A DNA stretch of 21,784 bases from a virus (taxonomy: Duplodnaviria > Heunggongvirae > Uroviricota > Caudoviricetes). Location: the IMG/VR virus record IMGVR_UViG_2541047936_000004; one strand, given 5' to 3'. The notes below the pieces were generated by a model. It saw only the letters and a list, made by a program, of their open reading frames with translations. It had not been told where the DNA came from and made no database searches. A program made the translations under genes and the position numbers. Positions 1 to 21,784 of the stretch are shown in pieces; position 1 is the stretch's first letter; each line of letters opens with the position of its first letter.

Positions 1-405
1 ATGGATCAGGTCGTTGTTTTTCAAAAGATGTTTGAGCAAGTGAGAAAAGAGCAAAACTTCTCCTGGTTTTATTCAGAATTAAAACATCACCGTATTGCAC
101 ATTACATTTATTATCTGGCTACGGATAACATCAGAATTATTACTCACGATGATACGGTTTTGTTATTAAGAGGAACCAGGAACCTGTTAAAAGTTAGTAC
201 GACCAAGAACCCTGCTAAAATAAAAGAGGCCGCATTGCTTCATATTTGCGGAAAATCTACATTTCGGGAATACTGTTCAACACTGGCAGGTGCGGGCGTT
301 TTCCGGTGGGTTACTGATGTTAATCATAACAAACGCAGTTACTACGCCATTGATAATACGCTTTTATATATTGAAGATGTAGAAAATAATAAACCATTAA
401 TCTAG
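1..405 (+). CDS. ycgX: Host-side small protein, 134 aa (YcgX-like, DUF1398-type)
   Basis: Complete 134-aa ORF starting at window base 1. Called from its position next to iraM and icdC, which matches the K-12 order icdC-iraM-ycgX, and from the recalled length; the sequence itself was not recalled. Confidence 0.5.
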   Translation: MDQVVVFQKMFEQVRKEQNFSWFYSELKHHRIAHYIYYLATDNIRIITHDDTVLLLRGTRNLLKVSTTKNPAKIKEAALLHICGKSTFREYCSTLAGAGVFRWVTDVNHNKRSYYAIDNTLLYIEDVENNKPLI

Positions 406-614
406 CTAAAGTTGGATACTTAAGAAATGCTTCATAATTCAGTAAGGCATTAGCATAATGGAAATAAAAGTGCAGAGACTATCTCTATGGATGATTAATA
501 CTGTCTTTTTATTGTCACCCATAAATAATCACCAGACTAATACTATCAACTTGATATTTGAAATGTGATCACTTGACTTTTGATACGTTATTTTATAACG
601 GTTAACATATTTAT

Positions 615-655
615 AAAAACAACGGCCGTGCCACACGTCCGTTTCAATACTTAAC
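615..655. repeat. Degenerate second copy of the icd-terminator hairpin element
   Basis: aaaaacaacggccgtgccacacgtccgtttcaatacttaac matches 1481-1520 (aaaacaacgggcgtgttatacgcccgtttcaatatttaac) at most positions, including the hairpin arms and the tttcaata-ttaac flank; the stem has one mismatch. Confidence 0.45.
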
Positions 656-1010
656 GCACATGTATTTTGGTTTAGTCATCATCCGGTTATATGTATTTTA
701 GCCAGGAACAGGTTAAATCATTCCTATATAACTCAAAAATTGAAACCTTATTCTCATGTCATGCTTATATTCATTATTATCGTTATATAAAAAGGCAACC
801 ATAATGTTTAGCAAATTGGCACAAAGTAGCATAAAGGCTATGTTTTAATTACAGGATGTTCAGTCATTTGAATGTATAACATTATAGCTAAACAAATCTA
901 AAACGAAGTCAATAATTTATTGCTTTCACAAAATCTCATTTTGTTTAACATCCATTGAGATTCCTTGCTTTAAATTTTATTTTATATAAGCCATCATTTT
1001 AATTAATTTA

Positions 1011-1028
1011 TTTTTTTGAGGGGGGGGG
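1011..1028 (+). repeat. Homopolymer tracts: T7 followed by G9, about 80 bp upstream of the iraM start
   Basis: Read directly: tttttttga then nine consecutive G at 1020-1028. Confidence 0.9.
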
Positions 1029-1105
1029 TAATATACTCATATGCAAAATCAAGAAATAAACATCCTAATGAACCATATTAAATACCGTGGGATAAGACAT
1101 AACAA

Positions 1106-1429
1106 ATGAAGTGGATAGTAATTGACACGGTAATTCAACCTACATGTGGTATATCTTTTTCAGCCATATGGGGTAATATGAAAATGATCATCTGGTATCA
1201 ATCTACTATATTTCTCCCTCCTGGCAGTATATTTACACCGGTTAAGTCTGGTATTATCCTTAAGGATAAAGAATATCCTATTACTATTTATCACATCGCA
1301 CCATTCAACAAGGATTTATGGAGTTTACTCAAAAGCAGTCAAGAGTGTCCTCCAGGAGAAAGCAAAATAACAAATAAATGTTTACATAATAGTTGCATTA
1401 TAAAAATATGCCCATATGGGCTCAAGTAA
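1106..1429 (+). CDS. iraM: Anti-adaptor protein IraM (stabilises RpoS by inhibiting RssB)
   Basis: 107-aa ORF whose sequence ([22 protein letters not shown]...) and length match my recollection of K-12 IraM; it sits next to the icdC scar as in K-12. Confidence 0.7.
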
Positions 1430-1485
1430 TGGGCTTCATATAAATATGCTCGATATGCTATTAATAATATCCACATAAATAAAAC

Positions 1486-1508
1486 AACGGGCGTGTTATA
1501 CGCCCGTT
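1486..1508. terminator. Rho-independent terminator between convergent icd 3' end and iraM
   Basis: Perfect 8-bp stem AACGGGCG/CGCCCGTT with a 7-nt loop; T-rich run on the minus strand immediately after the hairpin (plus-strand aaataaaa at 1478-1485), 24 nt downstream of the icd stop. Confidence 0.6.
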
Positions 1509-1531
1509 TCAATATTTAACACATGGAGAGA

Positions 1532-1696
1532 TTACATGTTTTCGATGATCGCTTCACCAAACTCTGAACATTTCAGCAGCTTAGCGCCTTCCATCAGACG
1601 TTCGAAGTCATAAGTTACGGTCTTGGCATTGATTGCGCCTTCCATACCTTTAACAATCAGGTCAGCCGCTTCAGTCCAACCCATATGGCGCAGCAG
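1532..1696 (-). pseudogene. icdC: Displaced 3' end of isocitrate dehydrogenase (icdC-like attachment-site scar), last ~53 codons plus stop
   Basis: Minus-strand translation [53 protein letters not shown] matches the Icd C-terminus as I recall it; the match ends abruptly upstream (HGFYIL does not match Icd), and there is no start codon or 5' part. Confidence 0.85.
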
Positions 1697-2396
1697 TATA
1701 TAAAAACCATGAATTCAAGTCATTGATATTTAACGATAAAAATTATTTTATTGTCTTTTTATTAGCCAAAATAAACTTTATTCAACCGTTTGATTTCATT
1801 GACGTTCGTTTTTATTTTGGGGAAAGGTTTTCTCTACCATTTATATCCAAATTACAAGTCTACATTTTATTAACATCTCAATACATGTGAGGCCTTGCAG
1901 ACCTTTGTGAGACCTTATGTGTCTCTGTTTTGTCCCAACTTATGTTAAGAGGCACATAATTAAAAATAAGATAACGATGCCGCCAAGCAGTGCAAAACCT
2001 TGTTTACTCCACGACTGTCTGCCCCATTATCTGCATACATAATTATCCTCCATAACTGAGATAAATGTCGGTTATGAGCGAACAACAGACGTTTAGTTTA
2101 TGATGGCTGTGTCTATACATTAAACATAACATCCATTACCGGCACCGCTTATTAATTGCTATCTGATATTGTCACTAAAAAAATAGGCATTCCCCGATAT
2201 AATAATCACAAAGAAGCTTTTGGTGCTGGCAATCGGTATACCTCATAGTGGACTGCGACTTTCCGGGCACGACAAGGATATATCAATGTATGAGCAGGAA
2301 AATTAGACCGTGGTGCGTCATATGATGACTAAGCACGGATAACAGCTACTTAATTGAAACTATTGATTATATTACAGCCAGTGCCTTATAGGATGG

Positions 2397-3518
2397 TTAG
2401 TCATCAACCGCGACTCCTGCACAATCATGGGCTATTGCCAGCAATTGTTTTTTAATTGCTTTAGCATCTACCGTCATATCTACTGTAGCAAAATGGATCT
2501 TATGTCCCTGAGTGACAACATACTCATTAAGCATATAGCCAACAGCTGGATGAAGTAGAAGACCAGCGGCATTGAGCGAAAGCGGATCCGTCTTGTTCTC
2601 CTGTGTTCTAAGGTAGGTATATAGCTGATAAATATAGCCATTACGTAGTGATTGCTCCCGATGCCAACCCTTTGTCAGAATCGAATTAAATTTGGTATCG
2701 ATAATAATACGCCGCTGGGCAGTCTTGTGTTCCAGAATAATGTCTGACTTCATTGTCGGGAAAATCTCTGCACTACCTGCACTTTGATCGCTCAACGCCC
2801 ATTTCAGCTCTTTCCCTGCAGAGACCTGCCAAGTTGTTTTGGCAAGGTGTACACGATATAAGCCAGCGATACCTTTTTCAAATAGTCTTCTCATCCAGTA
2901 AAGGTTATTTGAGGGCGCAGGTAAAAGATATTGGCCTTGATCTTCGGTCGGCATCAGCAGTTCAAAAGCTAATCGTGCGGCATCGACCATCGGTTTATCT
3001 GCGGCATCATGGCGTCCAAAACGCCACACTGAGGGTAATTCGCGGGGGGCAGGATATCCTCCATTTATCCCCTCACGGCGAAGTGATATTGCCATAAAAT
3101 GGCAATCTGCCGCCAAAGACGGTTTCACTATGATTGAGGCCAGACGTTCTAACGCACAGCGAACATAGCGATTTCGGGGGGTGTTGAGGGTTATGTCTTG
3201 AAAATGGCAGGCAACCTGTCCCCGTTCCAGCAGTTGATGACTGGCAGTATACAGTATGTCAATGCGCCCTCTCACCCGGTTCAGGGCCGCATGACAAGTT
3301 TGGTATCCCATATTTAAATTGCGACGTCGGCGCAGCGTAATCTCATGAAGGAGGATTGTCGCCACCAGGTCGGGGATTTCTGCTGGGTTATCTTCTACTG
3401 CGATCTGATTGCGCCCTAACTGGCGAAACAGATCTGAAGCGTACAGCATCAGCATCCAGATATTTCGCATGGGAATACGTGATGCTGTATGTTGCTCACT
3501 CCCGGTTATTGTCGTCAT
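2397..3518 (-). CDS. mcrC: McrC-family nuclease subunit of a McrBC-type (Type IV) restriction system
   Basis: 373-aa ORF colinear with K-12 McrC: MRNIWMLMLYAS vs VRNIYYMLTYA near the N-terminus, RIIIDTKF vs ILIVDAKYY (PD-D/ExK-type core), YIYQLYTYL vs LYQLMNYL, GLLLHPAV vs GLLIYPHV. Its ATG overlaps the mcrB stop (ATGA). Confidence 0.85.
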   Translation of the reverse strand: MTTITGSEQHTASRIPMRNIWMLMLYASDLFRQLGRNQIAVEDNPAEIPDLVATILLHEITLRRRRNLNMGYQTCHAALNRVRGRIDILYTASHQLLERGQVACHFQDITLNTPRNRYVRCALERLASIIVKPSLAADCHFMAISLRREGINGGYPAPRELPSVWRFGRHDAADKPMVDAARLAFELLMPTEDQGQYLLPAPSNNLYWMRRLFEKGIAGLYRVHLAKTTWQVSAGKELKWALSDQSAGSAEIFPTMKSDIILEHKTAQRRIIIDTKFNSILTKGWHREQSLRNGYIYQLYTYLRTQENKTDPLSLNAAGLLLHPAVGYMLNEYVVTQGHKIHFATVDMTVDAKAIKKQLLAIAHDCAGVAVDD

Positions 3519-5497
3519 TTTGCTAATAACACTTTTCTGGCTTCATCGACTTTATTTGGAGCATCGAACCAATATTCGGCGAGCAAAGGGCAGATCTCTG
3601 TATCAACGACTTGTTCATACCAAGCCTGGGCATCGTTGATTTTTTGGCCGATAGCTGGGGTGACATAGCTGTGACCGATACAAAACTGTGGTCCTAAGGT
3701 AACATCTTTTGCCAGCATATCGTTTAATACCGTCAGTCGAGATTTGATGAATGCTAACATGTCAAAATCAATTGCGTAATTATAATTTACCCAGTTTCTC
3801 CACGCGTCATTAAAAGCTGGCTTTAGATCGATAAACGCGAAACGACGGCGCAGCGCTAGGTCAAGTAGTGCGAGTGAGCGGTCTGCAATATTCATCGTAC
3901 CGATGATATATAGATTCTCAGGAATGTATATTTTTTCATCAGCATTTTTAGGATAGGAAAGAGATAATGCCTCAGTCGGCGTGCGTTTATCTGCTTCCAT
4001 CAACGTGAGTGTTTCACCGAAGATTTGCGCCGGATTGCCACGATTAATCTCTTCAATTATCACCACATATTTCGAGGTAGGATTATTGACTGCAGTTTTG
4101 ATTGCATTTACAAAAGGTCCATCAATTAGCGTCAATTGCCCTTCTTTACCTGGACGCCAGCCTCGAATAAAGTCTTCGTAAGAGAGGTTCGGGTGAAATT
4201 GCACCGCGCTAATACGCTCAGGTGCTTTTTCTCCCATCAAGCAGTACGCCAGACGTCGCGCTAACCAAGTTTTTCCAGTTCCGGGTGGTCCTTGTAATAT
4301 CAGGTTTTTCTTGTCGATCAGGCGCTGAAGTGTGAGTTGGATCTTAGCCTCTTCCAAGAAACAGCCATCCTGCACCAGATGACTGATGTCATAAGGAACG
4401 TGGGTGAGTTTTGGCAACAGCGCACTCTCTTCGACAGTTTCCTCAGTTATCGTCTGGGATTCGTTTTTCTCAAAATTCAGGTATTCATAATTTCCGGACT
4501 CGAGGGACTTTAACTCATCATCATTGCATAGTTTCTGTAGATAAAAGTAGATTGAGCTTGTAACAGTTTTGCTCTCAGGATGCTCTACCTTGAATACGTC
4601 CAAGTAGTTTTCTTCCAACTCCGAAGCAGTGAAATAAGGGCCATTTTTTTTCAGGCATAACGCCTTAATTTTATTCAGTAAAGAGGCTTTCCACGTTCTA
4701 TTTGCCACCTCATCTTTAGACTGGCTAAGATCTGTATTCCACGCTGATAAGGAAAGTTCTGGGAAAGAATGAACCGGATAGTTTGGTTGGGTAAAGACCT
4801 CGTTCAGCGCCCGCATAAGACTCAGGTAACTTTGTCCACTACAGCGACCTTTTGCCCCGTTTTTAATGATCTTAATGTTTAACACTGTCTGAATGTAATA
4901 CTGCGACTGGCTATCTAAAGTGGGGTAGAACCAAGGACGGGTCCAGTACAACCCCATGGTGAGATTCCAACCGACATTCATTACTGTAGAAGCGATGTCA
5001 TATGCGGCAGTGAAGTCTGCAGAGTTAGTATTCTGGTTATCCGCAAAGATCATTGCCTGTGAGAACATTTCCCACAAGCATTCAATGTCATTAGGGTCGC
5101 GTGACTTTTCATAACCAAAGAACCAAGATTTTTGGTTATTCAACAGAGGGATTCCGGCAAAGGAGTCAGGAATCGGTTCGTTCACGCCCAACAAATTCGC
5201 TAGCTTGGCAGCAATAATTTTGCGATTGCTGTCGGTCAAGTTACGATTGAACAAGCCCATAGTAGTAAACGGACAAATGTCTTTTAAGGGAAAGATCTCT
5301 CCCATAATAGATTTGTCCTGCAGATGGGACATTCCTTCCACACCCGAGGCAATTAGATGAATACCTTTGACTAATTCATCTCTACGATTTCGCCAAGTCA
5401 GTAACGCGTTGGCAAAAGCCTCATAAAAACTAGCCCAAGCAAACTTGCCATCATGTTCTGCTGTATCCACGGGAACTCCATTATACTTGTTGAGCAA
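3515..5497 (-). CDS. mcrB: McrB-family GTPase (AAA+) with a long N-terminal region of unknown type
   Basis: 660-aa ORF with a TTG start. Residues ~390-660 align with K-12 McrB: NLILQGPPGTGKTWLARRLAY, VQFHPNLSYEDFIRGWRP, MNIADRSLALLDLALRRRFAFIDL, IGHSY, PLLAEYWFD. The first ~385 residues do not resemble the K-12 McrB N-terminal domain as I recall it. Confidence 0.85.
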   Translation of the reverse strand: MLNKYNGVPVDTAEHDGKFAWASFYEAFANALLTWRNRRDELVKGIHLIASGVEGMSHLQDKSIMGEIFPLKDICPFTTMGLFNRNLTDSNRKIIAAKLANLLGVNEPIPDSFAGIPLLNNQKSWFFGYEKSRDPNDIECLWEMFSQAMIFADNQNTNSADFTAAYDIASTVMNVGWNLTMGLYWTRPWFYPTLDSQSQYYIQTVLNIKIIKNGAKGRCSGQSYLSLMRALNEVFTQPNYPVHSFPELSLSAWNTDLSQSKDEVANRTWKASLLNKIKALCLKKNGPYFTASELEENYLDVFKVEHPESKTVTSSIYFYLQKLCNDDELKSLESGNYEYLNFEKNESQTITEETVEESALLPKLTHVPYDISHLVQDGCFLEEAKIQLTLQRLIDKKNLILQGPPGTGKTWLARRLAYCLMGEKAPERISAVQFHPNLSYEDFIRGWRPGKEGQLTLIDGPFVNAIKTAVNNPTSKYVVIIEEINRGNPAQIFGETLTLMEADKRTPTEALSLSYPKNADEKIYIPENLYIIGTMNIADRSLALLDLALRRRFAFIDLKPAFNDAWRNWVNYNYAIDFDMLAFIKSRLTVLNDMLAKDVTLGPQFCIGHSYVTPAIGQKINDAQAWYEQVVDTEICPLLAEYWFDAPNKVDEARKVLLAK

Positions 5498-5830
5498 TGA
5501 TAATTTATCTGTGTGAGTTTTAACATATTACTATCAGTTATAGAAAAATTTAACTATCCGATACAGAGAGCGGAATGCTGAATTTGACCTGACTTGCTTC
5601 CAACCAATTAAAATCAACTTATTTATCAATTGGTTATTTTGGCACATGGCGGTCATCAAGGCAATATCGCGTTGTCATAAGGTGTCGAGGCTCGGAGGTT
5701 CAAATCCTCTCATACAAAAAATAAATAAAATTAATGACGGTTGGAAATTATTCAATACACTCTCGAAAGTACATCAGCCAACCGCAGCACGTTATTGCAT
5801 ATAACGTTTCTGCGGCATATCACAAAACTA

Positions 5831-6415
5831 TTATTCCATAACAGGGATTGCAGGCCACTCAATATCAGGTGCAGTTGATGTATCAACACGATTCAGCAAC
5901 ACCCGATACTTCTTCCAGGCTTCAAGCAACGAGGTTTCTTCCTCCGTTGCGATTTCCAGATCTGCAGCATCCTGAAGCGGGGCAATATGCTCACTGGCTA
6001 CCTGCATCAGGCTGTTTTTTGTTTCTTCCGCCTCCCGGATCCGGAACAGTTTTTCTGCTTCCGTATCCTTCACCCAGGCTGTGCCGTTCCACTTCTGAAA
6101 CTCCCCTTCCGGGGATAACCAGGTGATATTTTCCGGTAGAGGTCCGAGTTCAGAAATAAATAACGAGTCGCCGGAAGCCACGTCATAGACGGTTTTTCCC
6201 CGATGATCTTCAACGAGATGCCACGATGCCTCATCACTGTTGAAAACAGCCACGAAGCCTACCGGAATATCTGGCGGTGCAATATAGGTACTGTTTGCTG
6301 GCAGACCTGTATGAGGCGGAATATATGCGTCACCTTCACCAATAAATTCATTAGTTCCGGCCAGCAGATTATAAATTTTTATGGTCCGTGGTTGTTCACT
6401 CATTCTGAATGCCAT
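5831..6415 (-). CDS. tfa: Tail fibre assembly protein (lambda Tfa-like)
   Basis: 194-aa ORF nearly identical to my recollection of lambda Tfa ([43 protein letters not shown]...[11 protein letters not shown]); start overlaps the stf stop. Confidence 0.9.
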
Positions 6416-9264
6416 TATGCAAGCCTCACAATGTAGTTAAATGCGATGTTTTTGACGGTGTTTTCCGCGTTACCAGCAGCGTTAACGGTGATGGTGTGTC
6501 CATGTGAGCCAATCGCAACGGAGTGCGTATGAGCACCAATACCGACAGTATGTGCATGTGCGCCTGCGCTTGCAGCAGTGCCGGACAGCGAGTGGGTATG
6601 AGCACCATCTGATGATGTCTTCCCTGCATTACGAGTCTGGCCACTACCGCTTGTTGTGCTCATAATCCCCGCGCTTAGATTTGAAATCGCGGTATAACCA
6701 TTAGGGAAAATGCTCGTGTTCGTGCCACCAAATGCACCGGAACTCTTGTGTTGGTGCGCACCGGCACTATTTGCGGTCCCGCTAATACTATGGGTATGCG
6801 CCCCGGTGTTATTCGTGGATTTGGTTCCGTAATCAAACGACGATGTGGTTTTCGTCCCCAAATCCGTACTGGATGCGCTGGCGCTGTGGGTGTGCGATTT
6901 AATGCCGTCCTGTTCCTGAGACAATACGGCCCGACCACTGGCAGGTTTGCCCTTAATCGTCCAGCCACGCATATCAGGGATCACGCCTGACGGATAAGCG
7001 GCTGCAAGTTTCGGGTAAGCAGATTTGTCAAAAGTCTGCCCCTGCATCAGGGCATAACCAGACGGAACGGTATCTGATGGCCACGGGATTGGTGCGCCGA
7101 CTGGGTAGCTTTCTGGTGGAAGATTTTTCGAGGTATAAACTTCTGCCCAGCCTTCCTCAAAACCATAACCGTCTCTTGAAGAACGGTAGAACAGACCACC
7201 ATTTCTGTAATGCGCCTTCATCTGCAGGGTCCGGCAACTTCCGACTCCGGTATAGAAGTTAACCAGAATATAGCTGTCGCCAGAGCGGGTGACATTGTAA
7301 GCGCCTGATTCGGCATTCCAGGGAACGCCACCATCCGCATCGGCATATGTATCCGTTGCCCTTCTGGCAAAAGCAGCCACATGCGCGGCGGTTAAAGTAA
7401 TATCTTTGGAACCATCAAATGGAACACCGGATATTTTTCTTGCAGTCTGGAGTTTTGTAGCAGTTGCAGCATTACCAGTGGTGTTCTGATTACCCGTAGT
7501 GTTTACACCTGGAAGGTTAATATTTGCAGAACCGTCGAAAACAACTCCACCGATAGATCTTGCCGTCTGCAATTTCGTGGCTGTACTTGCATTACCATTC
7601 AATGAACCAGTTAATCCACCTGTAACAGACAACGGACCTGAAACTGTTCCTCCGGTTGTTGGCAGTGCTCCAATATCTGATGGTGTAGGTTTCTGATGTG
7701 AGCTATACATCGTATAAACAACACCATAGGTAACGCTGGAAGGCTTACTCGCTGAATATGTTGGCGAGGTATAAACAGAAACTGACGCATTTGCAGTACA
7801 ATCCCAATGGATATTTACACTCGTCGCATAATTGCCAATCTCAACGTAAATATCATATGTATCGCCGGATGTGTTGATCCAGGCGAAATTCGTTAATCCG
7901 ACGGCTGTACGCTTCCACAAAGCCCCGGTAATTCCTTTGGGGTTTCCATTGCCTGCTCGTAGAACCAGTTCTGAAATGCCTGCCTGATGTGGGGAACCGA
8001 CGTTGTAACCAGCGCCACCAATCAATGCGATGTAAACGATGGAACTCGCTTGTGGCATGGTAACCGTAGCCAGTTTGAACCACCCAGCCCCGCCAGAGAA
8101 AGACATCGTTACTGAATTTAAAGTACCAATATCTTTCGGCGTTAATGTTATATCCGCAGTCAGTGCTTTTCCGTTAACTTTTCGGTTAGATGGCACCCTG
8201 CTATTCGCATTGTCATTGGCTGCTTTAACTGCTTTTGGCGTTGCGGCCAGCGATTCACTGGTGCTATCAACAGCACTGCTAAGTTTCACAACACCTTTAG
8301 TTGTAAGGCTTGCGTCTTCCATCGCAACTGCACCGGCAATCTCTTCAGCACGATCAGCAGCAGCTTCCGCACGGGTCGCAGCGGATTCAGCAGTAGTTTT
8401 GCTCTGAGATGCCGCCGTCGCACTGCCAGCTGCCTCTGTCGCCTTCGTGGATGCTGTCGTGGCGCTGCCTTTCGCTGCTGATGCCTGTCTGCTCGCCTCA
8501 TCTTTTGAAGCAGACGCAGATGATGCCGATGACGCCGCCGAACTGGCGGACGATGCAGCTGCCATTTTTGAGGATTCTGCACTGGTTTCCGAGGCTTTCG
8601 CGTTCGTTTCGGATGTCTTCGCTGCGGATGCAGACCTCGCTGCTGCGCTGGCCTGTTCAGCGGCTTCGCCAGCCTTCGTTGTGGCTGTTGAAGCAGACGA
8701 TGCGGCGCTTTCTGCCGATTTTCCGGCGGCGGTGGCACTGGCTGAGGCCTGCCCGGCACTTGTTGACGCGGCACTGGCAGACGACGCAGCCGCTGTTTTT
8801 GAGCCTGCCGCAGCCGAGGCGCTCTGTCCCGCTGCCGTTTCAGAAGACCTGGCGTTTGTCTCAGACGTCTTTGCCGCCTTCGCGGAATTGCCTGCCGCCG
8901 TTGCCGAGGAAGCGGCACTACTGGCGCTTGATGATGCGTTCGTTTCTGATGATTTCGCTGCCTCTTTTGAGGCCGCCGCATCCCGGGCTGAGGTGGCTGC
9001 TTCTGACGCCTTCGTGGTCGCGGCGGATGCAGAAGTGGCTGCTGATTGTTGTGACGCTGCCGCATTCGTTTCTGACGTTTTCGCCGCACCGGCACTGGTA
9101 GCTGCCGCGCTTTTTGAGGACTCTGCAGCAGCACTTTTTGCTGCTTCACGGGCCTTTGTCGATGCCGTTCCTGCGCTGGAAGACGCTGACTGAGCCGACG
9201 ACGCGGCCTGTCCGGCTGACGTGCTGGCGGCACGTGCTGAGCCTGCAGCATCGGTTATTACCAC
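6415..9264 (-). CDS. stf: Side tail fibre protein (lambda Stf-like), N-terminally truncated
   Basis: 949-aa ORF. The Ala/Ser-rich periodic region (KTSETNA repeats), the middle [35 protein letters not shown] block and the His-rich C-terminus (GAHTHS...[31 protein letters not shown]) match lambda Stf. Homology begins at the position corresponding to about residue 145 of lambda Stf, and the upstream sequence is J-derived, so the first ATG is internal. Confidence 0.8.
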
Positions 9265-10332: not shown

Positions 10333-10880
10333 GCTTCACCTCCGCAGAGATCAAACGCTGGATGCAAAATATCGCAGGTGCATTTCTGCATCTGTGAATG
10401 GAGAAGAGAGGTTGGATTGTATGTGCGCATAAACGTCCCCGTTTAGCGCAGAAGTCACCGGAGTTGTTCAGGCCCCAATGGCATGATTATGGCTGGTTGA
10501 TTATTGGAAATCAAATGTGCTGAAAATTAGTCTGCCAAGTCTTCCTCAGTCGCAACTGGGTAATTCCAAATATCAAAAAAAGCTATAGCCTCCTGCCATT
10601 TGCTCCATAAGTTATCAAGTACTTGTGTAGGTTCCGTACTTTTAAAAACAGAATCAGCCGCATCACCGTTATGAACTTCCTCGTACAGTTCCATTATTAG
10701 CAGATTAACAAAGTACTGTTTCAACATTAATGCCTGATTACCTTCTTTCTGCTGGCTATCCTGCTTGATGATCTCCATCGCCCGTACTAGGCACCTGATG
10801 ATATCCGCTGCATCATTAACGCTCCATGAACCGCCCCGGGAATCCTGGAGACTAAACTTCCTGAGAAAGAGGTAAACAGG

Positions 10881-11207
10881 ATGACTAAAAATACTCGTTT
10901 TTCCCCCGAAGTCCGTCAACGGGCAGTCCGTATGGTTCTGGAAAGTCAGGATGAATATGACTCACAGTGGGCGGCAATTTGTTCCATTGCCCCAAAGATT
11001 GGCTGTACGCCGGAGACTCTGCGTGTCTGGGTTCGCCAGCATGAGCGGGATACCGGGGGCGGTGATGGTGGGCTCACCAGCGCTGAACGTCAGCGTCTGA
11101 AAGAGCTGGAACGTGAAAATCGTGAACTGCGCCGCAGTAACGATATCCTTCGCCAGGCTTCCGCTTATTTTGCGAAGGCGGAGTTCGACCGCCTCTGGAA
11201 AAAATGA
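10881..11207 (+). CDS. IS629 OrfA (helix-turn-helix transposase N-terminal part)
   Basis: 108-aa ORF inside the IS; ends in an A-rich slippery region overlapping the orfB start. Confidence 0.85.
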
Positions 11208-12094
11208 TGCCACTGCTGGATAAGCTGCGTGAGCAGTACGGGGTCGGACCGGTATGCAGCGAACTGCATATTGCCCCGTCAACGTATTACCATTGTCAGC
11301 AACAGCGACATCATCCGGATAAACGCAGTGCCCGTGCGCAGCACGATGACTGGCTGAAGAGAGAGATACAGCGCGTATACGATGAAAATCATCAGGTGTA
11401 CGGTGTGCGTAAAGTCTGGCGTCAGTTGTTACGGGAAGGAATCAGGGTGGCCAGATGTACAGTGGCGCGCCTCATGGCGGTTATGGGACTTGCCGGTGTT
11501 CTCCGGGGTAAAAAGGTCCGTACGACCATCAGCCGGAAAGCCGTTGCCGCAGGCGACCGCGTAAACCGTCAGTTCGTGGCAGAACGACCTGACCAGCTGT
11601 GGGTGGCTGATTTTACTTACGTCAGCACATGGCGGGGCTTCGTCTATGTGGCGTTCATCATTGATGTGTTTGCCGGATACATCGTGGGGTGGCGGGTCTC
11701 ATCGTCCATGGAAACGACATTCGTGCTGGATGCACTGGAGCAGGCGTTATGGGCCCGTCGACCGTCCGGCACGGTCCATCACAGTGATAAAGGTTCTCAG
11801 TATGTATCGCTGGCCTACACACAGCGGCTTAAGGAAGCCGGATTACTGGCATCAACAGGAAGTACAGGCGACTCGTATGACAACGCGATGGCGGAGAGCA
11901 TCAATGGTCTTTACAAAGCGGAGGTAATACACCGTAAGAGCTGGAAAAACCGTGCAGAAGTGGAACTGGCCACACTCACGTGGGTGGACTGGTATAACAA
12001 TCGACGATTGCTGGAAAGGCTGGGCCATACTCCTCCGGCAGAAGCAGAAAAAGCTTATTATGCTTCCATCGGAAACGATGATCTGGCAGCCTGA
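11204..12094 (+). CDS. IS629 OrfB (DDE transposase catalytic part)
   Basis: 296-aa ORF in the -1 frame relative to orfA with an integrase-core-like sequence (HSDKGSQY...DNAMAES); identical copy at 19058-19948 on the minus strand. Confidence 0.85.
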
Positions 12095-12523
12095 GTTCAC
12101 AGATAAAACACTCTCCAGGAAACCCGGGGCGGTTCACCATTCAGATCCGCGCTTATCTTTAGCTGATGAATTGGCTCTCTCAGCGCAAGCCTTTAAAGAC
12201 TCATAAAGGTAAACTCTATTTTGTAGCTGCAGCGCTTTTTTTGACGTGTACCAACTTGCAAGCGCCGACCCCGCTGCGGCTAATGTGCCAAACGCAGAAA
12301 TACCTGCTGCTATTGCACTTAAGTCGGCACTGTCAAAGTTCCACATCATCGTTACACCTTATATAAATACCCCTCAGTAATATCCAATAAGGTATGTGCA
12401 CAATCAATATAATTTTATCCGTATCGGCACATAGCGATTTGAACGCTACTGGTAATGGTATATTTTAGATTATATCGTCCAGTTTACAGCACCCGTATTT
12501 TATGAAATGGACTCGCATATTAC

Positions 12524-18963: not shown

Positions 18964-19057
18964 AAAAATTGATAAATTCAATACTGCATTACTCAGCATT
19001 AAATTTATCTCTATGTGAACCGCCCCGGGTTTCCTGGAGAGTGTTTTATCTGTGAAC

Positions 19058-19948
19058 TCAGGCTGCCAGATCATCGTTTCCGATGGAAGCATAATAAGCT
19101 TTTTCTGCTTCTGCCGGAGGAGTATGGCCCAGCCTTTCCAGCAATCGTCGATTGTTATACCAGTCCACCCACGTGAGTGTGGCCAGTTCCACTTCTGCAC
19201 GGTTTTTCCAGCTCTTACGGTGTATTACCTCCGCTTTGTAAAGACCATTGATGCTCTCCGCCATCGCGTTGTCATACGAGTCGCCTGTACTTCCTGTTGA
19301 TGCCAGTAATCCGGCTTCCTTAAGCCGCTGTGTGTAGGCCAGCGATACATACTGAGAACCTTTATCACTGTGATGGACCGTGCCGGACGGTCGACGGGCC
19401 CATAACGCCTGCTCCAGTGCATCCAGCACGAATGTCGTTTCCATGGACGATGAGACCCGCCACCCCACGATGTATCCGGCAAACACATCAATGATGAACG
19501 CCACATAGACGAAGCCCCGCCATGTGCTGACGTAAGTAAAATCAGCCACCCACAGCTGGTCAGGTCGTTCTGCCACGAACTGACGGTTTACGCGGTCGCC
19601 TGCGGCAACGGCTTTCCGGCTGATGGTCGTACGGACCTTTTTACCCCGGAGAACACCGGCAAGTCCCATAACCGCCATGAGGCGCGCCACTGTACATCTG
19701 GCCACCCTGATTCCTTCCCGTAACAACTGACGCCAGACTTTACGCACACCGTACACCTGATGATTTTCATCGTATACGCGCTGTATCTCTCTCTTCAGCC
19801 AGTCATCGTGCTGCGCACGGGCACTGCGTTTATCCGGATGATGTCGCTGTTGCTGACAATGGTAATACGTTGACGGGGCAATATGCAGTTCGCTGCATAC
19901 CGGTCCGACCCCGTACTGCTCACGCAGCTTATCCAGCAGTGGCATCAT
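19058..19948 (-). CDS. IS629 OrfB transposase (copy 2)
   Basis: Protein identical to 11204-12094. Confidence 0.85.
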
Positions 19949-20271
19949 TTTTTCCAGAGGCGGTCGAACTCCGCCTTCGCAAAATAAGCGGAAGCCTGGC
20001 GAAGGATATCGTTACTGCGGCGCAGTTCACGATTTTCACGTTCCAGCTCTTTCAGACGCTGACGTTCAGCGCTGGTGAGCCCACCATCACCGCCCCCGGT
20101 ATCCCGCTCATGCTGGCGAACCCAGACACGCAGAGTCTCCGGCGTACAGCCAATCTTTGGGGCAATGGAACAAATTGCCGCCCACTGTGAGTCATATTCA
20201 TCCTGACTTTCCAGAACCATACGGACTGCCCGTTGACGGACTTCGGGGGAAAAACGAGTATTTTTAGTCAT
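19945..20271 (-). CDS. IS629 OrfA (copy 2)
   Basis: Protein identical to 10881-11207. Confidence 0.85.
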
Positions 20272-20415
20272 CCTGTTTACCTCTTTCTCAGGAAGTTTAG
20301 TCTCCAGGATTCCCGGGGCGGTTCACTGACCAGTCAAGAGATGTACCTGCCATGAGCTTAATATCATGTCAGATATATCGGTCACAAACTCCCTCAGCAG
20401 CTAAGAGGAGGACAA

Positions 20416-20652
20416 ATGTCTCGACTAATCACTTTACAGGACTGGGCTAAAGAAGAATTTGGGGACTTAGCACCAAGTGAGCGAGTTCTGAAAAAATACG
20501 CGCAAGGGAAAATGATGGCCCCACCCGCTATAAAAGTTGGTCGCTACTGGATGATTGACCGAAATTCCCGTTTTGTAGGAACGCTTGCAGAACCGCAACT
20601 CCCAATAAACGCAAACCCAAAACTCCAACGGATAATCGCTGATGGCTGCTAG
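20416..20652 (+). CDS. xis: Excisionase (Xis-like)
   Basis: 78-aa ORF immediately upstream of and overlapping int, with a strong ribosome-binding site (AAGAGGAGGA); the LITLQDW...PPAIKVGRYW pattern resembles the lambda Xis family (LTLQEW...PPPVKDGREY). Confidence 0.7.
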   Translation: MSRLITLQDWAKEEFGDLAPSERVLKKYAQGKMMAPPAIKVGRYWMIDRNSRFVGTLAEPQLPINANPKLQRIIADGC

Positions 20653-21784
20653 ACCCCGATCTCACAAAATCTCTATACCCAATTTATATTGCAAATTAGA
20701 TAAGCGAACCGGAAAGGTATATTGGCAATACAAACATCCACTATCCGGTCGTTTTCATAGCTTAGGAACTGATGAGAATGAAGCAAAACAAGTTGCTACT
20801 GAAGCAAATACCATTATTGCTGAACAACGTGCCAGACAAATATTAAGCGTCAATGAGCGTCTGGAAAGAATGAAAGGCAGGCGCTCAGACATTACGGTGA
20901 CAGAATGGCTTGATAAATATATTTCTATCCAGGAGGACAGGCTGCAACATAATGAACTAAGACCCAACTCCTATCGGCAAAAAGGCAAACCCATTCGTCT
21001 TTTCCGTGAGCATTGTGGAATGCAACACCTCAAGGATATTACCGCACTTGATATTGCCGAAATAATTGATGCTGTAAAGGCTGAAGGTCATAACAGGATG
21101 GCGCAAGTCGTGAGAATGGTGTTGATCGACGTCTTCAAAGAAGCACAACACGCAGGACATGTTCCGCCAGGATTTAACCCTGCGCAGGCAACAAAACAAC
21201 CGCGAAATCGAGTAAACCGCCAAAGATTGTCACTGCTCGAATGGCAGGCAATATTTGAAAGCGTAAGCAGACGGCAGCCCTATTTAAAATGCGGCATGCT
21301 ACTTGCTCTTGTTACTGGACAACGTTTAGGCGATATCTGCAATTTGAAATTCTCTGATATATGGGACGACATGTTGCACATTACTCAGGAAAAAACCGGT
21401 TCAAAACTTGCTATTCCGCTTAACCTGAAATGCGATGCTCTGAATATTACCCTTCGTGAAGTTATATCTCAGTGCAGGGATGCTGTTGTTAGTAAATATC
21501 TGGTCCATTACCGTCACACTACCTCTCAAGCAAACAGAGGAGACCAGGTTTCTGCAAATACTCTGACAACGGCTTTTAAAAAGGCCCGGGAAAAATGTGG
21601 CATAAAATGGGAGCAAGGAACTGCGCCCACATTTCATGAGCAGCGATCTCTCTCAGAACGGTTATATCGGGAACAGGGTCTGGATACGCAAAAGTTGTTA
21701 GGCCATAAATCCAGAAAAATGACCGACCGATACAATGATGATCGTGGTAAAGACTGGATTATCGTAGATATCAAAACAGCATAG
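20642..21784 (+). CDS. int: Tyrosine integrase, lambda Int family
   Basis: 380-aa ORF colinear with lambda Int: RPRSH..PNLY near the N-terminus, LALVTGQRLGDICNLKFSDI vs LAVVTGQRVGDLCEMKWSDI, PTFHEQRSLSERLY vs PTFHELRSLSARLY, LLGHKS...RYNDDRG vs LLGHKS...QYRDDRG (catalytic Tyr context). The stop is the last codon of the window. Confidence 0.9.
   Translation: MAARPRSHKISIPNLYCKLDKRTGKVYWQYKHPLSGRFHSLGTDENEAKQVATEANTIIAEQRARQILSVNERLERMKGRRSDITVTEWLDKYISIQEDRLQHNELRPNSYRQKGKPIRLFREHCGMQHLKDITALDIAEIIDAVKAEGHNRMAQVVRMVLIDVFKEAQHAGHVPPGFNPAQATKQPRNRVNRQRLSLLEWQAIFESVSRRQPYLKCGMLLALVTGQRLGDICNLKFSDIWDDMLHITQEKTGSKLAIPLNLKCDALNITLREVISQCRDAVVSKYLVHYRHTTSQANRGDQVSANTLTTAFKKAREKCGIKWEQGTAPTFHEQRSLSERLYREQGLDTQKLLGHKSRKMTDRYNDDRGKDWIIVDIKTA

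Follow-up and report, generated by a model that had tools for sequence, protein, structure and literature searches.

The spacer at positions 1700 to 2396 of the window (the whole 21,784-nt stretch that was analyzed, Escherichia coli DNA) forms attR, the end remote from int, of a defective prophage of the phage 21 type, ~20 kb in size and integrated in icd. It is very probably a mosaic junction rather than a functional unit, forming the left edge of an accessory-gene slot equivalent to the lambda b region, and the homologies, boundaries, co-occurrence counts, folds and open reading frame (ORF) decay observed along it are presented below in that light. The spacer is composed of five pieces which, from the host junction inward, are an attP arm, a 60-bp hairpin, a decayed small-ORF block, a block carrying an Xer site, and the 3′ flank of an McrC-like gene. 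The features are as follows, with the strand given where one was assigned.

1532-1700 (-): icdC, the displaced host 3′ end of icd (attR scar), from K-12 homology and PGAP
1700-1876: phage-21-type attP arm, int-distal, 24% GC, from homology to phage 21
1783-1795 (-): candidate IHF-consensus match, CAACCGTTTGATT (reverse complement of WATCAANNNNTTR), read from the sequence
1815-1826 (-): putative Int arm-type site, CTTTCCCCAAAA, an exact match to the YYTTCCCCAAAA consensus annotated in the phage 21 attP (OL657228)
1877-1937 (+): conserved 60-bp element, comprising an 18-bp imperfect hairpin (1883-1922, loop ACCU) and the tail CUCUGUUUUGUCCC, from conservation and folding
1938-2095 (-): decayed lambdoid small-ORF block, from homology to phage 21 CPT_21_32 and its leader and to lambda 27372-27533
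2040 to 1960 (-): 26-codon ORF, MYADNGADSRGVNKVLHCLAASLSYF, with Shine-Dalgarno GGAGGA at 2046-2051
2067-2090: short stem-loop, GTCGGT-N12-ACAGAC, where the lambdoid and Xer blocks overlap, from shared sequence
2066-2262: conserved ~190-bp block carrying the Xer site, from homology
2119-2146 (-): putative dif-like XerC/XerD site, GGTGCCGGTAA-TGGATG-TTATGTTTAAT, from comparison with dif
2152-2176 (+): diverged IS1202-family left-end remnant, 5 bp from the XerC arm, identified via the Erwinia homologue
2263-2396: McrC 3′ flank, with one candidate terminator
2294-2338 (-): candidate intrinsic mcrC terminator, a bipartite CCGUG...CACGG hairpin followed by UCUAAUUUU, from folding
2397-3518 (-): McrC-like gene (PF10117, E 5e-21)
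3515-5497 (-): McrB-like AAA_5 ATPase gene (PF07728, E 8e-27)

The int-distal end of a prophage in icd

From its left end the window carries ycgX, iraM, and icdC, followed by the prophage end. Identity to K-12 is 99.8% up to position 1698, where K-12 annotates icdC, and PGAP calls a partial isocitrate dehydrogenase at 1532-1700; the host/prophage junction lies at ~1698-1700. The xis-int region of phage 21 is found at the opposite end of the prophage (20327-21784, + strand, 99.5% identity), which is here reduced to a remnant with IS copies. The flanks of the spacer are those which the first-pass annotation had described, the att scar on the left being the icdC pseudogene and the genes on the right being of the McrC family and of McrB type.

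Directly after its icd′ fragment, phage 21 (M61865, OL657228) has a sequence 89.6% identical to positions 1700-1950, and in phage 4A7 and its relatives the sequence at this place is 92.8% identical. Homology, the icdC and integrase flanks, and an arm-type motif, the properties by which a phage-21-type attP arm or attR is recognized, were all found. Phage 21 itself has three arm-type copies beside int and one at the homologous position in this arm, of which the window site is the homologue; four arm-type copies were reached in none of 200 shuffles. The stretch at 1783-1795, assigned as a candidate IHF-like site by its match to the IHF consensus, is invariant between the window and phage 21. The job of this arm, with its putative Int arm-type and IHF-like sites, would be the assembly of the excisive intasome at attR.

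Phage 21, which integrates in icd, thus shares with the window the attP arm, the position of the arm-type Int motif, and xis/int at the other end, whereas past position 1950 its cargo is a gene for a 252-aa hypothetical protein together with sitABCD and that of the window is the Xer block and the McrBC-like genes. Window positions 1950-5694 stand in place of phage 21 L006 3751-5126, and a 109-bp right flank is common to both. The cryptic prophage e14 of E. coli K-12 occupies the same icd integration site with the same layout, its last cargo gene before icdC being mcrA (type IV restriction), but no similarity to window 1700-1950 was detected in the e14 arm, which lies between mcrA and icdC. An identification of the prophage end as e14 was rejected on these grounds, the e14 arm being unrelated and the K-12 homology ending at 1698. 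An apparent second place of the locus in strain DAM proved to be the same locus split by an IS, and no separate site.

The distribution of the spacer among 5426 E. coli genomes divides it in two. Its first 251 positions, including the attP arm, are present in 1466 genomes with differing cargo behind them, while the whole spacer is found in only 301; the region 1945-2396 is found whole in 305 genomes, and the region 2100-5900 in 289. Conservation together with the McrBC module, the check proposed in the first pass, accordingly holds for the right part of the spacer (1945-2396, in 305 genomes) and fails for the left part, which occurs in its 1466 genomes whatever the cargo. Within the spacer only positions 1950-2396 travel with the McrBC-like genes (289 to 305 genomes). 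Strains ML35, NCTC9100, and RM10410 are among the carriers.

As described previously, the spacer is AT rich (35.9% GC versus 45.9% for the whole window) and devoid of ORFs of at least 60 aa, the longest being a 55-aa TTG-start ORF at 1723-1890 (+). The segment 1700-1876 has 24.3% GC, and the host DNA on the left side is just as AT rich. Twenty ORFs of at least 20 aa overlap 1500-2500, so an ORF of 26 codons is of a size expected by chance. A terminator scan of the minus strand returned solely the native icd terminator (1508-1486).

The hairpin and the small-ORF block beside the attP arm

The imperfect direct repeat reported in the first pass is present, with TGTGAGGCCTT (1886-1896) and TGTGAGACCTT (1906-1916) matching at 10 of 11 positions. 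We estimate that chance would give ~0.2 pairs of this kind, no more than 30 nt apart, in 697 bp, so that the repeat alone is not beyond chance; it lies inside the 60-bp element, which is conserved across many phages. The repeat represents the two arms of a + strand hairpin and is part of the phage backbone, not an McrBC element; the hairpin is present in the 1466 genomes and in phages 21, SfI, SfII, SfV, and 2G7b, which lack McrBC. The element is 83 to 87% identical in SfI, SfII, SfIV, SfV, 2G7b, and others with a different integrase, and the annotation of SfII describes it as a putative rho-independent terminator after int. RNA folding of this region, a check proposed in the first pass, gave a stable hairpin at 1883-1922 on the + strand (-17.2 kcal/mol, z -3.2, versus -11.8 kcal/mol, z -1.4, on the - strand), which belongs to the phage and not to mcrBC. 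The fold is strand specific because the hairpin relies on 4 to 6 G·U pairs.

In the excised or infecting circle the hairpin lies downstream of int, across attP, and in the prophage it is separated from int. In all 20 viral loci where an int gene was found, the element and int share a strand, and in 14 of them the element is directly downstream of int, at 150 to 190 nt past the stop codon of an SfII-type int and at ~490 to 500 nt past that of a 21-type int; phage-form contigs carry it 150 to 500 nt downstream of int, and prophages at the far end. Judged from its sequence and position, the hairpin may act on int-direction transcripts as a terminator or as an RNase III-type processing site. It would then be a positional analogue of lambda tI/sib, a retroregulator described as lying downstream of int on the other side of attP (Schindler & Echols 1981, as cited in PMC5300877), and would insulate the cargo from read-in transcription. 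The geometry resembles that of tI/sib, in that a putative long imperfect int-sense hairpin is located past the int-distal arm and is split from int in the prophage. The position on the int strand and the separation by integration are as in a sib-type retroregulator, but homology to the sib/tI hairpin is missing: the lambda tI hairpin (27579 to 27535) is not homologous to the 60-bp element, the lambda homologue of which lies ~25 nt beyond tI, at 27509 to 27471, and is without a U tail. The U-tract which follows the hairpin in the window is itself non-canonical, consisting of only four U's starting 5 nt past the stem, and the terminator scan selects a weak 5-bp alternative stem (1909-1925) in its stead.

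It is conceivable, if rather doubtful, that the element has no RNA function and is conserved as a recombination linker or as the 3′ end of a small ORF on the other strand. Across 109 viral copies the sequence on each side of it is mosaic, as expected at a module junction, and in phage 21 the complementary strand encodes the C terminus of the small ORF. Compensatory two-sided changes were absent from the hairpin alignment, which performed no better than column shuffles in this respect; diversity in this alignment is low, and its 3′ arm is fixed by the search pattern. Against this reading, the element persists where the small ORF is missing, in phages of the SfII and 2G7b types, it always has the same orientation with respect to int, and the G·U-dependent fold is clearly better on the int-sense strand, with stem stabilities ranging from -17 to -23.5 kcal/mol (z -3.2 to -4.3). 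Furthermore, 93.7% of cells in the alignment pair, as opposed to at most 64% with the register slid, and all five one-sided changes preserve pairing.

The small-ORF block which follows is ~70% identical to phage 21, IHE3034, and p4D31-5 and can be aligned with lambda. A block of this kind sits next to attP in phage 21, lambda, and their relatives, and the window copy has decayed: the conserved start GTG-AAA-GAA-AAG reads GTG-GAG-TAA, and -2 and +2 indels are also present. The 26-codon ORF noted in the first pass does exist at 2040-1960 (-), with GGAGGA (2051-2046), a 5-nt spacer, and ATG. Its ATG is homologous to the start of an ORF of 50 aa in phage 21 and of 53 aa in lambda, after which a different frame is followed, and on this comparison we regard it as a frameshifted, and probably accidental, remnant of the small-ORF block.

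That the 26-codon ORF is instead a genuine small-protein gene, for example, for a toxin or a membrane peptide expressed from the prophage end, is highly improbable. Such a reading could draw on the near-ideal Shine-Dalgarno arrangement, on a start codon homologous to that of an ORF which all 55 viral copies of the phage-21-type block keep open, and on OL657228, in which the parent ORF is annotated as a putative membrane protein. The window frame is, however, not the conserved one, which runs into TAA. Neither a maintained ORF with its translation signals nor a coding substitution pattern was found; among 12 copies, three have TGC changed to the stop codon TGA at codon 18, and six have the weaker GGAAGA in place of GGAGGA. 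No full hydrophobic segment is seen in the peptide, PHROGs and NCBIfam contain no family matching it, and PGAP places no annotation here in the genomes listed. Evidence for coding is weak even for the intact parent ORF, whose distinct codon variants show a weak synonymous excess (synonymous to non-synonymous, 10:17 versus 6:18 and 5:19 in the other frames), with 7, 7, and 11 variable sites at the three codon positions. In a protein search, homologues of the parent formed 47 close clusters, confined to Escherichia and Salmonella and all hypothetical.

The right edge of the small-ORF block overlaps the Xer block in the stem-loop at 2067-2090, a structure found both in phage 21, p4D31-5, and lambda and in KTa005 and Erwinia. 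Comparison of the three lineages shows both partners changed in two of its pairs; its fold is weak (-7.6 kcal/mol, z -1.6).

The Xer block, its IS1202-family relic, and the McrC 3′ flank

The block at 2066-2262 is 79% identical to the defense island of E. coli KTa005/Eco24 and 76% identical to a plasmid of Erwinia billingiae. Its neighbors are unrelated defense or candidate defense genes in the three lineages, namely, an Mrr_cat endonuclease, a PDC-S06/AAA_13 ATPase, and, in the window, the McrBC-like genes. The putative dif-like site within the block matches E. coli dif, the sequence of which was confirmed in K-12, at 18 of the 22 positions in the arms (8 of 11 in the XerC arm and 10 of 11 in the XerD arm) and has a 6-bp spacer, in keeping with the dif-like architecture of an 11-bp arm, a 6- to 8-bp center, and an 11-bp arm. 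The central 6 bp resemble dif and psi. A score of 18/22 is reached by 1.4% of composition-matched random 21.8-kb sequences, and this site is the only one to attain it in the window. The site is conserved in KTa005, Eco24, and Erwinia, and its XerC and XerD arms are no more conserved than their flanks.

On the XerC side, the Erwinia homologue has TGTAGATCCCATATTCTAATGTCACTTTT, which is ~97% identical over 29 to 31 nt to the left end of Klebsiella ISNCY/IS1202-family elements, and these elements likewise lie 5 bp from a dif-like XerC arm. IS1202-family insertion sequences are known to insert 5 bp from the XerC arm and to have TGT ends (PMC10132070), and to target dif-like (pdif/xrs) plasmid sites (PMC10132070; bioRxiv 10.1101/2022.12.17.520857). 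The corresponding window sequence matches that of Erwinia at 15 of 23 positions, starts with TTA rather than TGT, lacks a transposase gene, and is too diverged to be recognized without the Erwinia intermediate. It is a relic and not a member of the IS1202 family, because all that it retains is the 5-bp spacing and, by way of Erwinia, the homology. The possibility that the sequence after the IS1202-type end is the other end of an IS, which would make the whole a MITE, was discarded, there being no similarity beyond the 29- to 31-nt left end. A 38-bp match in strain M171-1 which ends in the XerC arm was considered as an Xer crossover and is in fact an IS3 insertion with an associated deletion.

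The site has the 11-6-11 architecture of dif/pdif sites, and the IS1202-type end in Erwinia is spaced exactly as in ISKpn21, ISKpn65, and ISLad2; it differs from such sites in lying in a chromosomal prophage beside defense genes and in having an XerC arm with only 8 of 11 matches and an IS reduced to a stump. It has the XerC/XerD core in common with ColE1 cer and pSC101 psi. In resolution sites of the cer type the XerC side comprises ~180 bp of conserved accessory sequence, whereas this flank is here an IS end and not a set of accessory-protein sites; no similarity of the block to ColE1-type plasmids in PLSDB was detected at blastn sensitivity. The dif modules of Acinetobacter consist of cargo genes bracketed by pdif sites, and the window resembles them in having a dif-like site which abuts an accessory/defense cassette, but a single site is present instead of a bracketing pair, and the E. 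coli genomes gave no sign that modules have been shuffled.

Only three lineages are known to carry the block. Within the plasmid collection, the Erwinia record alone contained it, the Klebsiella matches being confined to its core, the dif-like/IS-end segment. Species-representative genomes, scanned twice, yielded no diverged copies, a metagenome scan yielded KTa005-type copies only, and a viral scan yielded copies of this same module only.

In our interpretation the ~190-bp block was probably brought in along with the McrBC-like cassette and has since become a relic. There is little to recommend the opposite view, in which the dif-like site is an active XerCD substrate that mobilizes or exchanges defense cassettes or resolves dimers of an excised element. 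It draws on the 18/22 match and the 6-bp spacer, on the block adjoining unrelated defense or candidate defense genes in three lineages, on Klebsiella plasmids in which a toxin-antitoxin pair lies between two dif-like sites, and on the IS1202-family end found exactly 5 bp from the XerC arm in Erwinia, a position which implies that the site was once recognized as an Xer site. Set against it are the three mismatches in the XerC arm and the solitary occurrence of the site, with none at the other edge of the cassette (nothing reaching 15/22 between 2400 and 6000). In E. coli the block occurs in two fixed contexts only, in 305 genomes with McrBC in icd and in 18 records of the KTa005 type, and no sign of cassette swapping at the site was seen. 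The block is also absent from the searched phage collection, among plasmids it occurs in the Erwinia record only, and recombination with chromosomal dif would be deleterious. The more specific proposal, that the site and its ~190-bp flanks form a still-active Xer junction moving defense cassettes among prophage slots, islands, and Enterobacterales plasmids, is very improbable. If it were true, the junction would be an enterobacterial, defense-carrying analogue of the Acinetobacter dif modules, with McrBC-like, Mrr-type endonuclease, and PDC-S06 ATPase cassettes.

An unrecognized small regulatory RNA encoded in the spacer is scarcely credible. The conserved non-coding blocks do contain stem-loops, and a strong GC hairpin (GAGCCCCCGTGAGGGCTC) lies at the end of the Xer block in KTa005 and Erwinia, but this hairpin is absent from the window copy. 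Consensus folds of the Xer block on both strands across the three lineages, with positive covariation terms, lend no support, and the fold of 2180-2400 is no better than shuffles (z -0.2). A permissive Rfam scan of 1-6000 gave no match in 1700-2396 at E up to 1, and the four promoter-like matches in a promoter scan compare with 5.1 expected from shuffles.

To the right of the Xer block, the McrC-like and McrB-like genes overlap at 3515-3518, and both subunits of an McrBC-type system are encoded in one operon; the PGAP names are mcrC for the first and AAA family ATPase or McrB family protein for the second. Neither protein matches the PADLOC McrBC models, McrC giving no hit and the best hits of McrB being type II restriction endonuclease models. 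The candidate mcrC terminator (-12 kcal/mol, z -2.5) is located ~58 nt past the stop codon and is missed by a simple terminator scan because its stem is interrupted. The promoter of the McrBC genes would be expected upstream of mcrB, at ~5500 or farther, and not within the spacer. Of the first-pass proposal, that the spacer could contain a terminator and regulatory sequences for the mcrBC operon or else a small gene, only a plausible mcrC terminator at 2338-2294 (-) is retained, the repeat being a phage-backbone hairpin and the 26-codon ORF a frameshifted relic.

Significance of the spacer

The spacer is largely ordinary, consisting of inherited phage sequence and mobile-element leftovers and not of a new gene or an McrBC control region. 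The main value of the analysis is one of annotation hygiene, as a small ORF with a strong ribosome binding site and a repeat of this kind should not be reported as a gene or an McrBC regulator. The 60-bp hairpin and the small-ORF block near attP are common to lambda-, 21-, and SfII-type phages with three different integrases; the pair marks the border of the accessory/defense slot and may be a sib-like control element or an insulator that is annotated only ad hoc. The only mildly unexpected part is the relic dif-like site with its IS1202-family stump beside unrelated defense genes in three lineages. As a relic the Xer site is a footnote, and if active it would be worth study; it hints that Xer sites, and the insertion sequences which target them, contribute to the traffic of defense cargo in Enterobacterales.

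Position of the spacer at the edge of an icd-integrated prophage

The window represents a segment of the Escherichia coli chromosome: positions 1-1698 share 99.8% identity with K-12 and harbor ycgX, ymgL/ymgK, iraM and the icdC pseudogene. In an identical strain, PGAP annotates, in order, iraM, a partial isocitrate dehydrogenase gene, an unannotated stretch of 697 bp, mcrC, an AAA family ATPase gene and tail-fibre genes. The extent of K-12 identity, this gene order and the presence of phage 21 xis and int at the far end together establish that the window spans a defective prophage of approximately 20 kb integrated in icd, of which the spacer between the icdC att scar and mcrC (1700-2396) is the int-distal end (attR). 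On sequence grounds, the prophage is assigned to the phage 21 type. An e14-type prophage was rejected, the arm of e14, the K-12 prophage at icd, between mcrA and icdC having no similarity to window 1700-1950.

Features of the spacer and of the prophage ends (window coordinates)
1532-1700, minus strand: partial isocitrate dehydrogenase (icdC), PGAP annotation of the identical strain
1700-1876: attP arm, phage 21 homology directly behind the icd' fragment
1883-1922, plus strand: 18-bp imperfect hairpin, computed fold
2119-2146, minus strand: dif-like XerC/XerD site, GGTGCCGGTAA-TGGATG-TTATGTTTAAT, identical to E. coli dif at 18 of 22 arm positions
2152-2176: diverged IS1202-family end, kept in the window and in strain KTa005
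2338-2308, minus strand: bipartite hairpin followed by UCUAAUUUU, candidate mcrC terminator, approximately 58 nt past the mcrC stop codon
20327-21784, plus strand: xis and int, 99.5% identity to phage 21

Several further repeats and insertion elements were observed. The ymgK-iraM segment is flanked by a 43-bp repeat (616-658 and 1481-1523; 84% identity) similar to the hairpin region of the icd terminator; the repeat also occurs in K-12 and may represent an older, second scar of an icd end. A run of nine G residues stands at 1021-1029, approximately 75 nt before the start codon of iraM. The prophage remnant contains two inverted IS3-family copies of approximately 1.31 kb (10826-12136 and 19016-20325), each 97.3% identical to the IS of strain DAM and one just upstream of xis/int. 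The minus strand at 5874-6000, in or beside a tail-fibre-assembly gene (5831-6415), matches Rfam IS009 (RF02111; 131.9 bits, above the gathering score), the 5' end of the match being cut at the edge of the searched stretch.

The first-pass annotation described the spacer as AT-rich and devoid of ORFs over 60 aa, both of which were confirmed (GC content of 35.9% versus 45.9% for the window; no ORF of 60 aa or more). Megablast comparison with 5426 complete E. coli genomes returned a spacer match in 1466, with at least 80% of the spacer present in only 301; the remaining matched genomes share only spacer positions 1 to approximately 237-251 (window 1700-1950; 91-95% identity) and carry different cargo behind the shared part, such as the hypothetical gene and sitABCD of strain IHE3034 and of phage 21 itself. 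Region 1945-2396 was found whole in 305 genomes, and region 2100-5900 (Xer block, McrC, McrB and right flank) in 289. From these co-occurrence counts, the conservation with the McrBC-like genes that had been proposed as a check holds for the right two-thirds of the spacer, which travels with them, but not for the left third, which belongs to the phage backbone.

Window 1950-5694 stands in place of approximately 1.4 kb of phage 21. The slot occupied by the McrBC-like cargo is bounded on its right by a conserved 109-bp block (5694-5799), shared at approximately 82% identity with phage 21 (5126-5234) and IHE3034. Elsewhere, IS3-family insertions have hit the spacer in strains DAM (L003, approximately 6852-7927) and M171-1 (L145, 4068-5230), one at approximately window 1872, just before the hairpin, and the other at approximately 2137, inside the XerC arm, where the McrBC-like genes have been lost as well.

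The attP arm and the hairpin beyond int

The attP arm shares 89.6% identity with phage 21 (M61865 and OL657228) and 92.8% with phages 4A7, 1W and 3W; within 1773-1885, the window and phage 21 differ at hardly any position. The OL657228 annotation lists three tandem Int sites beside int, with the consensus YYTTCCCCAAAA; phage 21 has a fourth exact copy in its other arm, and the window has one at the homologous position (1815-1826), representing a putative Int site. A match to the IHF consensus at 1783-1795 represents a putative IHF site.

The adjoining 60-bp element (1877-1937) has copies of 83-87% identity in SfI, SfII, SfIV, SfV, 2G7b and other phages, those examined having a different integrase; the SfII annotation calls it a putative rho-independent terminator, approximately 130 nt after int and before gtrA. 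Across 109 copies on viral contigs, a 21-type or an SfII-type (tRNA-thrW-integrating) arm stands on the left and any of at least five different sequences on the right, a mosaicism on both sides which marks the element as a module junction. In each of the 20 loci with a detected int, the element shares the strand of int, being located 150-190 nt (SfII type) or approximately 490-500 nt (21 type) past the int stop codon in 14 of these and at the far prophage end in the others.

The imperfect direct repeat reported earlier is present (TGTGAGGCCTT at 1886-1896 and TGTGAGACCTT at 1906-1916), and constitutes the two arms of the hairpin, which look like a direct repeat because each contains the near-palindrome AGGCCU. 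The folding suggested for this region yielded plus-strand energies of -17.2 kcal/mol in the window (z -3.2), -18.9 in SfII (z -4.2) and -23.5 in phage 21 (z -4.3); because four to six of the pairs are G.U, the complementary strand gives a poorer fold (z -1.4 and -2.6). Among 15 distinct sequences, 93.7% of cells pair, compared with at most 64% if the register is shifted. One-sided variation with pairing kept occurs at five pairs; two-sided changes are absent, and the counts do not exceed those of column shuffles. Thermodynamics and register thus support the structure, and covariation does not.

The homologous hairpin of lambda (27509 to 27471) lies approximately 25 nt beyond the tI/sib hairpin (27579 to 27535); the element consequently resembles sib in position but not in homology, being its positional analogue. 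It would be expected to terminate or process int-sense transcripts in the excised phage, and may insulate the cargo in the prophage.

The small-ORF and Xer blocks

At the place homologous to the small-ORF block (1938-2095), phage 21 is annotated with CPT_21_32, a 51-aa putative membrane protein on the minus strand. Just beyond tI/sib, lambda possesses a homologous, unannotated 53-aa ORF (MHAGCGEVVKEKKSAASFDITAIFLLVMQVVVGGTQSFALDCEALCFSGVRQV; 27372-27533, plus strand; 873-1034 of lambda segment L138), whose leader is homologous to the CPT_21_32 block. The parent ORF retains a 78-nt core in frame across 55 viral copies, with 10 synonymous to 17 non-synonymous distinct codon variants, compared with 6:18 and 5:19 in the other frames, a weak coding signal. 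A search of 5.8 billion proteins with this ORF retrieved only 47 close clusters, all called hypothetical, with Escherichia and Salmonella as named sources, and neither it nor the lambda ORF has a PHROGs or NCBIfam family.

In the window copy, the conserved GTG-AAA-GAA-AAG has become GTG-GAG-TAA, with additional -2 and +2 indels. The 26-codon ORF (2040 to 1960, minus strand), with GGAGGA five nucleotides upstream, is present as described and starts at the upstream ATG homologous to that of its relatives, in a different reading frame. As the Shine-Dalgarno sequence is GGAAGA in six of 12 module copies and a TGA occurs at codon 18 in three (DAM, M171-1 and one viral contig), this ORF is considered a decayed remnant and not the small gene that had been suggested. 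Taken alone, both the repeat (1886-1916) and an ORF of this size are no more than chance would give.

The Xer block (2066-2262) has matches of 77-79% in a defence island that other strains of E. coli carry (KTa005 and Eco24; 18 records) and of 76% in an Erwinia billingiae plasmid; scans of species-representative genomes and of metagenomes yielded no further lineage. Its dif-like site is the sole such site in the window, and the 18/22 score, relative to a dif reference checked beside hipA in K-12, is reached by just 1.4% of composition-matched random 21.8-kb sequences. Distant Klebsiella plasmid matches are near-perfect dif-like sites, each with an ISNCY/IS1202-family left end (TGTAGCTCCCATATTCTAATGTCAC) 5 bp from the XerC arm, a published behavior of IS1202-family targeting (PMC10132070). 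In the Erwinia homologue, this IS1202-family end (approximately 97% identity over 29-31 nt; E 3e-10 to 4e-9) again stands 5 bp from the arm, where a transposase gene is absent. Plasmid NZ_CP031793 of Klebsiella pneumoniae carries a DUF1778/GNAT toxin-antitoxin pair between two dif-like sites of the same orientation (L023, 2594-2621 and 3505-3532), the second abutted by an IS1202-family IS and then a TIR-domain gene.

The genes beside the Xer block are unrelated, encoding McrC/McrB-like proteins (window), an Mrr_cat endonuclease (KTa005) and a PDC-S06/AAA_13 ATPase (Erwinia). The other edge of the McrBC-like cassette has no second Xer site, and no cer-type accessory similarity surrounds the existing one. 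That the block forms an active Xer junction for defence cassettes is very improbable, and nothing supports an active role; we read it as an Xer site, probably a relic, which bears an IS stump and arrived with the cargo.

The McrC 3' flank and the makeup of the spacer

The McrC 3' flank (2263-2396) is specific to the McrBC module and, as a whole, does not fold above shuffles. The candidate mcrC terminator (-12 kcal/mol; z -2.5) is the sole spacer element which fits the proposed terminator of the mcrBC operon. The McrB-like protein (3515-5497, minus strand) carries a 380-residue N-terminal region without a Pfam match ahead of its AAA_5 domain, and neither it nor the McrC-like protein matches the PADLOC McrBC models.

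The first-pass annotation is real as a description, yet the spacer is for the most part ordinary. Known kinds of elements make up this mosaic edge of a prophage: the attP arm of phage 21, a conserved hairpin past int, the decayed remnant of a small ORF, a dif-like site that is probably a relic and bears an IS1202-family stump, and the 3' flank of a gene.
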